A DNA stretch of 32,000 nucleotides from Mycoplasma mobile 163K (GTDB lineage Bacteria; Bacillota_I; Bacilli_A; Mycoplasmatales; Metamycoplasmataceae): the NCBI RefSeq assembly GCF_000008365.1, contig NC_006908.1:1-32000 (forward strand), read 5' to 3'. The notes beneath the pieces are model-generated. The model had not been told where the DNA came from. It made no database searches and saw only the letters and a list, made by a program, of their open reading frames with translations. Below are positions 22,567 through 23,707 of this stretch, in pieces (position 1 is the first letter of the stretch; every line of letters begins with the position of its first letter). A program made the translations under genes and the position numbers.

Positions 22567-23049
22567 ATGAACCCAAAAAACATTAATAATGTTGAATTAA
22601 ACCCAATAAAAACAGTCGGAAGATCAGGGAACGCACTTGCTTTAGTTAATAACACAAAGCAAAATATTAGCTATTGATATTCTGATAATGGCGCTAATAA
22701 ATGGTACTTACACACAATAGGAGCAAATTTATCTACTTGAGATTGGCAATGATCAAACTTTTGAACAGGATATGCACTAGTAATAGAAGTACCACTTAAT
22801 GATAAAGAATCAAAATATATTGTTCCTGCTTTTTCAGAATATAAAAAAGAGGAATTTAAATTAACCGAATTTCCTATGACAGATATTTATACTCAAATCG
22901 CACTTAAAAATAAAGCTCCATTATTCAATAATGGAAAATGAATTTTGGAAAATACTTCCTTATATCCAGGTAAAATTGATAGTTTTGCAACTCATCATAC
23001 AAGATTTGTTTTAGAAAATGATGGATCTTTTTCCTGAGTTAATTTTTAA
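22567..23049 (+). CDS. Trp-rich small protein, paralog 1 (160 aa, 6 UGA + 2 UGG Trp codons)
   Basis: Absent from the track. I translated every codon by hand and found no TAA/TAG before 23047-23049. Strong SD gaggag lies 5 nt before the ATG, and TATAAT is at 22527-22532. A terminator hairpin follows. Confidence 0.8.
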
Positions 23050-23070
23050 AAACAAAGTAAGCAATTAGTT

Positions 23071-23106
23071 AAAAAATAGAAATTAAAATATTAATTTCTA
23101 TTTTTT
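23071..23106 (+). terminator. Rho-independent terminator
   Basis: aaaaaatagaaattaa-aata-ttaatttctatttttt. Confidence 0.7.
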
Positions 23107-23218
23107 AATTTTAAATCTTTTAATTAATAAAAAGTTTGTCTTCTAGTTTTATTTTTCTACTTAATTTTACAAATTTTTCCAAAATATTTTATAATTTTAT
23201 TTGAAAGAAGAGGAAAAT

Positions 23219-23707
23219 ATGAAAACAAAAAATAATAATGACACTAATAATGTTGAATTAAACTCAATAAAAACAACTGGTAAATCAGGGAACGCACTTG
23301 CTTTAACAAATAACACAAATCAATCTATTAATTATTGATATTCTGATAATGGTGTAAACAGATGATACTTACACACAATTCCAGCTAAATCATCTACTTG
23401 AGACTGACAATGACCAAATTTTTGAACAGGATATGCAATGGTAATTGAAGTTCCTCTTAATGATAAAGAATCAAAATATATTGTTCCTGCTTTTTCAGGA
23501 TATAGAAATGATGATATTCAATTAACAGAATTTCCTATGACAAATGTTTATTCTCAAGTTGCTCCTAAAGGAAAAATACCAGCATTTAATAATGAAAAAT
23601 GAAATAAAGATTATACAAATTTATACCCAGGAAAAATTGATGGATTTTATGTATATCATACAAATGTTTCTATAGAAAATAATGGCGTATTTAATTGAGA
23701 TATTTAA
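23219..23707 (+). CDS. Trp-rich small protein, paralog 2 (162 aa, 8 UGA Trp codons)
   Basis: Absent from the track. The frame is open under code 4 to TAA 23705-23707. SD agagga and TATAAT at 23190-23195. All 8 Trp positions and the block VPLNDKESKYIVPAFS are shared with paralog 1. Confidence 0.8.

Follow-up and report, generated by a model that had tools for sequence, protein, structure and literature searches.

Genes A and B of Mycoplasma mobile 163K, which lie one after the other on the same strand, are best explained as two intact, separately transcribed protein-coding genes, and they are almost certainly functional, encoding Trp-rich all-beta domains of an orphan family. M. mobile is a model organism for mycoplasma gliding and a fish-gill pathogen, and about one-third of its small proteome is unassigned; lineage-restricted orphan families are common in Mollicutes. 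The literature searched (i.e., by locus tags and in gliding-machinery proteomics) assigns no function, family, or structure to A or B, which are presumably hypothetical proteins of the published annotation of the strain (Jaffe et al. 2004, Genome Res 14:1447). The M. mobile genome is a single 777,079-bp contig, and the window (i.e., the whole stretch of DNA analyzed here; 32,000 nt) corresponds to its bases 1 to 32000.

Reading frames and expression signals of genes A and B

UGA encodes Trp in the usual code of M. mobile, and in-frame TGA codons are present in every large gene of the window. We therefore read the region with translation table 4 (i.e., UGA = Trp). It then contains two tandem paralogous genes for proteins of 160 and 162 amino acids (aa), with exactly the frames that an earlier note on this DNA had claimed; the six (A) and eight (B) UGA codons likewise agree with its count of six to eight per gene. 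The same note had described the genes as hidden from the open reading frame track. They are indeed absent from the standard-code track, but this is an artefact of the code used, and both proteins have already been deposited in public protein collections. The frames (about 160 codons each, in a region with a G+C content of 21%) are uninterrupted under code 4.

Aligned over 149 aa without gaps, the two proteins share 69% identity and 82% similarity (E = 6e-79). All eight Trp positions are matched in the A-B alignment, and the STWDWQW.NFWTGYA and VPLNDKESKYIVPAFS blocks are found in both proteins, the latter in identical form, as had been described. Trp accounts for 5.0% of the residues of A, 4.9% of those of B, and 5.4% of those of paralog C (see below), while the genome mean is 0.93% (581 ORFs of at least 150 aa). 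These three proteins occupy ranks 1 to 3 for Trp content among the 581 ORFs, and the earlier remark that a Trp content of about 5% is unusual is thus borne out by the whole genome.

Each gene was said to have its own TATAAT box, Shine-Dalgarno (SD) sequence (gaggag and agagga, respectively), and terminator hairpin, and all of these were found (Table 1). The total number of sigma-70-like sites between positions 21800 and 24300, an AT-rich region, is not above that of shuffled sequences. The top two sites of this region, however, stand immediately 5' of A and B, and a 17-nt block at the TATAAT box is 94% identical between the two upstream sequences. The position of the SD sequence is common to all four M. 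mobile paralogs. Since the SD sequence of B falls within the TTG-extended frame of this gene, the ATG at position 23219 is its likely start. None of 200 shuffled sequences formed a hairpin as stable as that of A, and the hairpin of B was likewise unmatched by shuffles. A simple scan for G+C-rich terminators overlooks both hairpins. The Rfam search of positions 21300 to 24800 gave no RNA match.

Table 1. Coordinates of genes A and B, their putative expression signals, the flanking coiled-coil gene copies, and the paralogs C and D (numbering of the single M. mobile contig)
Feature	Position	Strand	Remarks
Coiled-coil gene, left flank	21463..21813	-	Small gene, 116 aa, multi-copy family; left arm of inverted duplication
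Promoter-like site of gene A	22504..22532	+	TTTAAA-17-TATAAT; consensus match only, 10/12; second-best in 21800-24300
Shine-Dalgarno sequence of gene A	22556..22561	+	GAGGAG; 5 nt 5' of ATG, read from sequence
Gene A (P0001)	22567..23049	+	160-aa Trp-rich protein, predicted all-beta; Trp codons 6 TGA + 2 TGG
Terminator hairpin of gene A	23067..23110	+	20-bp A+U-rich stem, then U run; -16.3 kcal/mol, z -5.98
Promoter-like site of gene B	23166..23195	+	TTTACA-18-TATAAT; consensus match 11/12; best in 21800-24300
Shine-Dalgarno sequence of gene B	23209..23214	+	AGAGGA; within TTG-extended frame of B
Gene B (P0002)	23219..23707	+	162-aa paralog, counted from ATG; 8 UGA-Trp codons
Terminator hairpin of gene B	23712..23752	+	18-bp stem, then U7; -16.4 kcal/mol, z -6.58
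Decayed coiled-coil gene copy, right flank	23791..24068	+	Inverted copy with its upstream DNA; stops, internal deletion
Paralog D	739377-739973	-	198 aa
Paralog C	742110-742610	+	166 aa

Paralogs, flanking DNA, and relatives in other mycoplasmas

A six-frame search of the M. mobile genome revealed four paralogs (A, B, C, and D) at two loci. Paralog D carries an extra N-terminal extension of about 45 residues, which is charged and amphipathic. At their locus, C and D alternate with genes for two lipoproteins (about 460 aa) that bear a PBP/PEBP (phosphatidylethanolamine-binding-protein) domain, and a fructose-type PTS EIIABC gene comes after this cluster. In the maximum-likelihood tree, B groups with C (98/96 support) and A stands outside; the dS values are 0.43 for B-C, 0.46 for A-B, and 0.89 for A-C. 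The tree and the dS values together imply that the tandem neighbors A and B are not the youngest pair. The description of the two genes as a tandem pair thus holds insofar as they are tandem paralogs, but they are part of a four-member family in which B is the sister of C and not of A. Judging from the dN/dS ratios among them (0.24 to 0.47; 0.47 for A-B), A, B, and C are under purifying selection; the compression of synonymous sites at a G+C content of 21% probably makes this selection look weaker than it is. No further decayed paralogs were detected in the genome (tblastn, E ≤ 5). A candidate for a fossil third gene near position 741,953 was rejected; its DNA match score of 29 is not significant against a shuffle maximum of 30.

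The A-B locus is bracketed by inverted repeats. In inverted orientation, the right-flank sequence gives two blastn matches to the small coiled-coil gene of the left flank, one of 161 nt at 78% (E = 4e-31) and one of 66 nt at 82% (E = 4e-12), and in tblastn it yields coiled-coil fragments broken by stops. This decayed copy accounts for most of the seemingly empty 455-bp spacer. Other copies of the coiled-coil family are located near 126.4, 703.3, and 745.9 kb. On one side, the pair is adjoined by nrdJ-cobO and the small coiled-coil gene; on the other side lie a four-transmembrane protein and the surface-protein array with long repeats that is already known. The two M. mobile loci are best explained as accessory regions with many genes for surface proteins and lipoproteins.

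Unusually long spacers flank the pair, and they contain a decayed gene copy, as might be expected if A and B were themselves decaying or unexpressed duplication relics with no present function. We consider this explanation very improbable. All four frames are intact over about 160 codons despite six to eight in-frame TGA codons and a G+C content of 21%, the dN/dS ratios are below 0.5, and the SD sequence, the -10 box, and the terminators have been retained; moreover, 16 core residues are invariant among family members that are as little as 28% identical. The earlier note had named TAA or TAG disruptions in homologs as a sign of pseudogene decay, and when read with code 4, every relative that we found has an intact frame.

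We searched for relatives outside M. mobile at the protein and the DNA level. An exhaustive phmmer search of 1.84 billion representative sequences with B as the query returned five proteins (B, D, P0005, P0007, and P0006), while a word-indexed search of 5.8 billion proteins returned only the M. mobile copies and P0007. P0005 (207 aa; 36 to 41% identity) stems from a Logan assembly and carries, like D, some 45 extra residues at the N terminus, which are amphipathic; P0007 (168 aa) stems from a Mycoplasmoidaceae metagenome-assembled genome (MAG). In whole-genome searches with the family profile (six frames, stops read through), none of the 178 other genomes of M. mobile's own family gave a match, and one positive genome each came from a sample of 398 genomes of the order and from the 135 genomes of a second family. 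The positive genome of the second family (G337) contains one 168-aa copy and two 215-aa copies. A related-locus search of genome and metagenome contigs returned nothing and also missed the G337 copies, probably because their Trp residues are encoded by TGA. When the invariant W-Y-x-H-x-I-(6 aa)-W-D-W-x-W core was searched for as a DNA pattern that allowed TGA or TGG (i.e., TGR) for Trp, all three G337 copies were recovered from the genome and metagenome collections. The remaining matches to this pattern (i.e., Aerococcus and seven metagenome contigs) were discarded as chance matches, their frames being broken by stops. Relatives elsewhere are thus limited to P0005, P0007/8, and P0009 to P0011, and the family is tiny and patchy, being found in M. 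mobile and two Mycoplasmoidaceae lineages only.

Profile searches linked the proteins to no established family. Pfam, PHROGs, and PADLOC (A, B, and all 10 members) and NCBIfam (A and B) gave nothing consistent; the best E values were 0.014 in PADLOC (one member) and 0.04 in PHROGs (two members), neither pointing to a consistent family. Single-sequence and profile searches of the PDB sequences produced noise only. The statement that the proteins belong to no recognizable family therefore stands against four HMM libraries and the PDB; the only structural echoes (see below) are weak.

The gene neighborhood differs between lineages and is not conserved. The copies in the MAGs GCA_051656245.1 and WFFMC_MAG_002 lie among type I restriction-modification (R-M) genes, a DUF4011 helicase gene, a gene for a C5 DNA methylase, and one for an ABC-2 transporter that adjoins recA. 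P0005 is preceded by a UDP-glucose dehydrogenase gene, and its contig is closest to genus g35 of the second family (70% identity in an ABC ATPase). A UDP-glucose dehydrogenase fragment also lies 3 kb from paralog D in M. mobile, which is a weak coincidence with the P0005 context.

The MAG neighborhood, the very patchy distribution (a single genome out of 179 in one family and out of 135 in the other), and the inverted copies of a repeated coiled-coil gene around A and B would suit an accessory gene of mobile or defence islands (e.g., for immunity, exclusion, or anti-restriction) that has spread horizontally among distant mycoplasmas. Such a role seems quite improbable to us, given that PADLOC and PHROGs gave no match at E ≤ 0.01 and that neither M. 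mobile locus contains an integrase or transposase. Furthermore, the housekeeping genes of the P0005 contig are 34 to 47% identical to those of M. mobile, and P0005 itself diverges to about the same level (41%), so vertical descent with loss fits equally well.

Conserved residues, predicted fold, and structural comparison

The alignment of the 10 family sequences contains 17 invariant columns, i.e., Met1 and the 16 core residues. In the numbering of A, these are M1, A23, N28, Y36, Y38, W46, Y47, H49, I51, W58, D59, W60, W62, T67, P118, W125, and H144. Eight of them are aromatic (Y36, Y38, W46, Y47, W58, W60, W62, and W125), and a His/Asp/His set is invariant in addition. Three neighboring aromatic-rich strands (I.YWY, WY.H.I, and TWDW.W) make up the invariant core together with the aromatic turn (W-x-N-F/Y) that comes after them. 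The divergence of the termini, noted before from A and B, recurs in the family alignment, in which the long central hairpin is divergent as well. An internal three-fold repeat, considered for the recurring [DN][DN]G..W motifs, was rejected, since hhalign comparisons of the thirds of the alignment gave probabilities of 0.1 to 2%; the sole hhalign match among the thirds is an overlap of the slices.

A and B lack a signal peptide, a lipobox, a transmembrane segment, and Cys residues, in agreement with what had been read from the two translations. Their maximum 19-residue hydropathy is 0.25 to 0.49 (i.e., below 0.5), and neither has the lipobox signal peptide or hydrophobic N terminus by which mollicute lipoproteins and secreted proteins are recognized. 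The maximum hydropathy of the M. mobile copies is below 1, their pI values are 5.9 to 6.8, and their frames are open only six to eight codons further upstream. The 215-aa relatives (P0009 to P0011), by contrast with these copies, begin with MKIKK and a hydrophobic segment of about 21 residues (KD, 1.7 to 2.1) without a lipobox Cys. They align across the whole domain, and their N terminus, read as a signal-anchor or signal peptide, would place the domain outside the cell.

For B, AlphaFold2 prediction from seven sequences gave a model with a pLDDT of 85.4 and a pTM of 0.84, and three of the five models had a pLDDT above 83. The model of A, from four sequences, was poor (pLDDT, 61) and was used for strand positions only. 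Ten strands are predicted at equivalent positions in the two models. The only helix in the B model is a three-residue turn (P66-N67-F68) directly after the W-D-W-Q-W strand, and the long central hairpin (residues 84 to 98 and 103 to 116) corresponds to the most variable part of the alignment. A and B are best described as soluble proteins of about 18 kDa with a near-neutral pI, each predicted to consist of a single 10-strand all-beta domain that is probably a beta-sandwich. The beta-rich composition proposed earlier is thus matched by the predicted all-beta fold.

In Foldseek searches of PDB and BFVD, neither model had a match with an E value of ≤0.001 or a TM score of 0.5, so no significant neighbor was found. 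The matches obtained have E values above 0.01, TM scores below 0.5, and rmsd values of 8 to 10 Å. For both models, the PDB matches with the highest TM scores are actinoporins (equinatoxin II, 0.40 and 0.43; bryoporin, 0.40). Entry 1kd6 was matched with TM scores of 0.40 and 0.43 at probabilities of 0.93 and 0.82, alongside 7pud, 9eyl, FraC, and HALT-1; the best TM score (0.43) corresponds to an rmsd of 8.2 Å and an E value of 0.083. Lower TM scores were obtained for domain 4 of cholesterol-dependent cytolysins (CDC), ostreolysin A, and thaumatin-like proteins, all of which recur among the matches. We take the recurrence of membrane-binding sandwiches among these model-based matches as a lead, which makes no assignment. 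A lectin-like or pore-former-like sandwich had been put forward earlier as speculation, and this is the standing that it retains.

Actinoporins are pore formers that bind phosphocholine/sphingomyelin via an exposed aromatic cluster, and their beta-sandwich is flanked by two helices, one of which is N-terminal and amphipathic. Like A and B, they are soluble proteins of about 160 to 180 aa with an aromatic-rich beta-sandwich (PF06369, Anemone_cytotox; 1kd6, 7pud, and FraC). The conserved residues of the A/B family also include an aromatic cluster. However, the TM scores are only 0.40 to 0.43, the Pfam scan and the PDB profile search gave no profile match for A or B, the model lacks the flanking helices, and neither A nor B has an N-terminal amphipathic helix. 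CDC domain 4 and the aegerolysins (PF06355; e.g., ostreolysin A) are likewise all-beta sandwiches, which bind membranes via Trp-rich loops. Their similarity to the models is lower (TM score, 0.2 to 0.36; 6myi, 0.28 to 0.33, and 5cr8, 0.28 to 0.36), there is no Pfam match, and CDC domain 4, unlike A and B, belongs to a four-domain toxin. The beta-trefoil or ricin-type (QxW)3 lectins and other lectin folds built of internal repeats differ from the A/B family, which has neither an internal repeat nor a Pfam match to them.

These likenesses bear on the possibility that the family acts by an actinoporin- or aegerolysin-like membrane attack, in which the aromatic turn would dock on host lipids and the protein would permeabilize the membrane alone or with a partner. 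Actinoporins rank first by TM score for both models, with CDC domain 4 and ostreolysin A recurring, and the size of about 160 to 200 aa, the richness in Trp, and the absence of a signal peptide all fit; pneumolysin, for example, is released without a signal peptide. The amphipathic N-terminal extensions of about 45 residues in D and P0005 also accord with this mode of action. The level of the structural matches (E > 0.01, TM score < 0.5, rmsd of 8 to 10 Å) argues against it, as do the model without flanking helices, the near-neutral pI, and the absence of a MACPF-type partner nearby. Moreover, the Pfam models for actinoporins, aegerolysins, and CDC gave no match at E ≤ 10 for A and B or at E ≤ 1 for the 10 members. 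Taken together, we regard membrane attack of this kind as improbable.

The sole similarity outside Mollicutes is with P0006, a 1260-aa actinobacterial-type metagenome protein built of a repeat of about 48 aa with the core NNTLNYWYTPDGSGQWY. A hairpin motif of 24 to 31 residues, N.[ST][IL]NYWY[ST].[DN]G...WY, matches residues 31 to 57 of B, and the likeness spans just two strands of the domain. P0006 contains about 14 copies in two blocks and has a propeller-like look, in contrast to the mycoplasma proteins, which carry a single copy without an internal repeat. No Pfam model covers the P0006 repeat, nor does this repeat have a relative in PDB.

Candidate functions and significance

Our preferred reading, to which we assign a probability of roughly 35%, is that the A/B family is a non-enzymatic binding module whose aromatic platform would hold a host-derived ligand at or beyond the cell surface. 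The platform or loop might be presented to a membrane-lipid head-group or a glycan, and the proteins may work on the cell surface or beyond it, whether released by a non-classical route or anchored in the membrane like the 215-aa relatives. Binding itself, the type of ligand, and the cellular location are all inferred. Several observations suggest such a module. No catalytic family or fold matches the proteins, aromatic residues dominate the invariant set, and no other proteins of the genome are as rich in Trp as A, B, and C. Furthermore, one branch of the family (i.e., the 215-aa relatives) appears to be signal-anchored, the M. mobile genes lie near those for PEBP-domain lipoproteins and a PTS sugar transporter and near a surface-protein array, and the faint structural echoes fall on membrane-binding sandwiches. 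However, nothing in the fold comparison firmly supports a binding module, and its neighborhood is unconserved across lineages. The M. mobile copies, which have no export signal, would at face value be cytoplasmic, and this fits an extracellular ligand badly. In addition, the invariant H49, D59, and H144 could equally well form a metal or catalytic site.

The last two points lead to an alternative that we consider possible, if on balance doubtful, namely, a cytoplasmic enzymatic, metal-binding, or structural role in which the core of the sandwich would be built from the aromatic residues, and H49, D59, and H144 would make up a functional site. The four M. mobile copies are without an export signal and predicted to be soluble, with pI values of 5.9 to 6.8, and the polar residues N28, H49, D59, T67, and H144 are invariant in all 10 sequences. 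The alternating W-x-W-x-W strand, as modeled, resembles the buried face of a sandwich, which would be in line with a role of the aromatic residues in the core. Against a cytoplasmic role, no enzyme or metal-binding family is matched by sequence, the Foldseek matches include no cupin-like or other enzymatic fold, and the putative signal-anchor of the 215-aa relatives sets the domain outside the cell.

A bolder form of the binding module, which we consider unlikely, is that the family represents an unrecognized class of small, Trp-rich sandwiches that is specific to Mollicutes and binds membranes or glycans, being distantly analogous to the actinoporins or aegerolysins and serving a few animal-associated mycoplasmas as a released or surface-anchored, possibly cytolytic, host-interaction factor. 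The strand topology of the family may perhaps be without any solved representative.

The novelty of the finding is modest, i.e., a lineage-restricted family that had not been characterized, for which a sandwich is predicted with confidence and no solved structure is a significant neighbor. With four copies in a 777-kb genome, a confident fold prediction, and no significant PDB neighbor, the family is a cheap and well-defined target for structural genomics. If its members act in the cytoplasm, they would still define a new domain family. To our knowledge, very few effector types have been described in Mollicutes, and if the proteins prove to be lipid-binding, glycan-binding, or lytic, they would constitute a new effector type for mycoplasmas. 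The A/B family may therefore serve as an entry point to the question of how wall-less bacteria contact host membranes or glycans.

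Relatives in other genomes

In two Mycoplasmoidaceae MAG loci (L005, and L013, i.e., G337:C8:164000-178675), genes of the Trp-rich family lie in a variable island adjoining recA-cinA. Either hsdS/hsdR or a DUF4011 helicase comes first in the island; one or two signal-anchored copies of 215 aa are next, followed by a C5 DNA methylase and then by the copy of 168 aa, after which come an ABC-2 permease and ATPase. The copies in MAG G337 were missed by the related-locus search but were found both by a genome search and by a TGR-aware DNA pattern; negatives from the related-locus search are not to be trusted for Trp-rich queries in organisms that read UGA as Trp.

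Paralog D, from the second M. mobile locus (L018), looks orthologous to P0005, a 207-aa relative from a Logan assembly. A UDP-glucose dehydrogenase gene is located immediately 5' of P0005 (L014, 8131-10141), and some 3 kb separates D from a shorter UDP-glucose dehydrogenase-like ORF of 252 aa, which has just the N-terminal and central domains. The presence of such a sequence near both genes may be a remnant of a shared context, or it may be due to chance.

P0006, a 1,260-aa JGI metagenome protein that shares a short hairpin motif with the family, carries approximately 14 tandem units of about 48 aa each (residues ~590 to 1260; core, GPNNTLNYWYTPDGSGQWY), which are split into two blocks and preceded by three domains of the FN3-like type. 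In its layout, the array resembles a propeller. The repeat matched no Pfam model and had no relative among PDB sequences, and the source annotation of the protein (i.e., "SRPBCC domain") looks wrong.

Inverted duplication around the tandem pair

The tandem genes A and B are flanked on both sides by an inverted duplication. The small coiled-coil protein encoded in the left arm belongs to a multicopy M. mobile family (identity, 45 to 82%), for which searches against Pfam gave only subthreshold, generic coiled-coil matches. The right arm holds a decayed copy of this 116-aa gene, with stops present and the repeat region lost; this copy and the accompanying DNA from upstream of the gene make up the greater part of the 455-bp "noncoding" spacer 3' of gene B.

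Coordinates of features in the window, the M. mobile genome (G000), and its second locus (L018; G000 731000-748000)
Feature	Coordinates	Strand	Identity
Left arm	window 21463-21882	-	
Coiled-coil gene	window 21463-21813		
Right arm, decayed copy plus upstream DNA	window 23791-24068	+	78%/161 nt, 82%/66 nt
Coiled-coil copy	G000 126424-126783		
Coiled-coil copy	G000 703284-703613		
Coiled-coil copy	G000 703058-703255		
Coiled-coil copy	G000 123198-123323		
Coiled-coil copy	G000 745871-746125		
Coiled-coil copy	G000 704263-704337		
UDP-glucose dehydrogenase-like ORF	L018 4673-5428		
PBP-domain lipoprotein	L018 6880-8247		
PBP-domain lipoprotein	L018 9427-10812		
Gene B	window 23219-23707		
Paralog C	G000 742110-742610	+	

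The second locus and paralog history

At the second locus, D and C alternate with two genes for lipoproteins of ~460 aa with the Pfam PBP (phosphatidylethanolamine-binding protein) domain. This cluster is followed downstream by PTS EIIABC and Lipoprotein_17 genes. One coiled-coil family copy is located about 3 kb downstream of C. At G000 ~741,890-741,910 (minus strand), a candidate remnant of the 3' end of another, third gene of the family has a 17-nt core with one mismatch, but its local alignment score did not exceed those of shuffled sequence (score, 29; shuffled maximum, 30).

The closest sister of B is the distant C rather than the neighboring A (support, 98/96; dS, 0.43), which implies an inter-locus duplication or conversion later than the A/B split.
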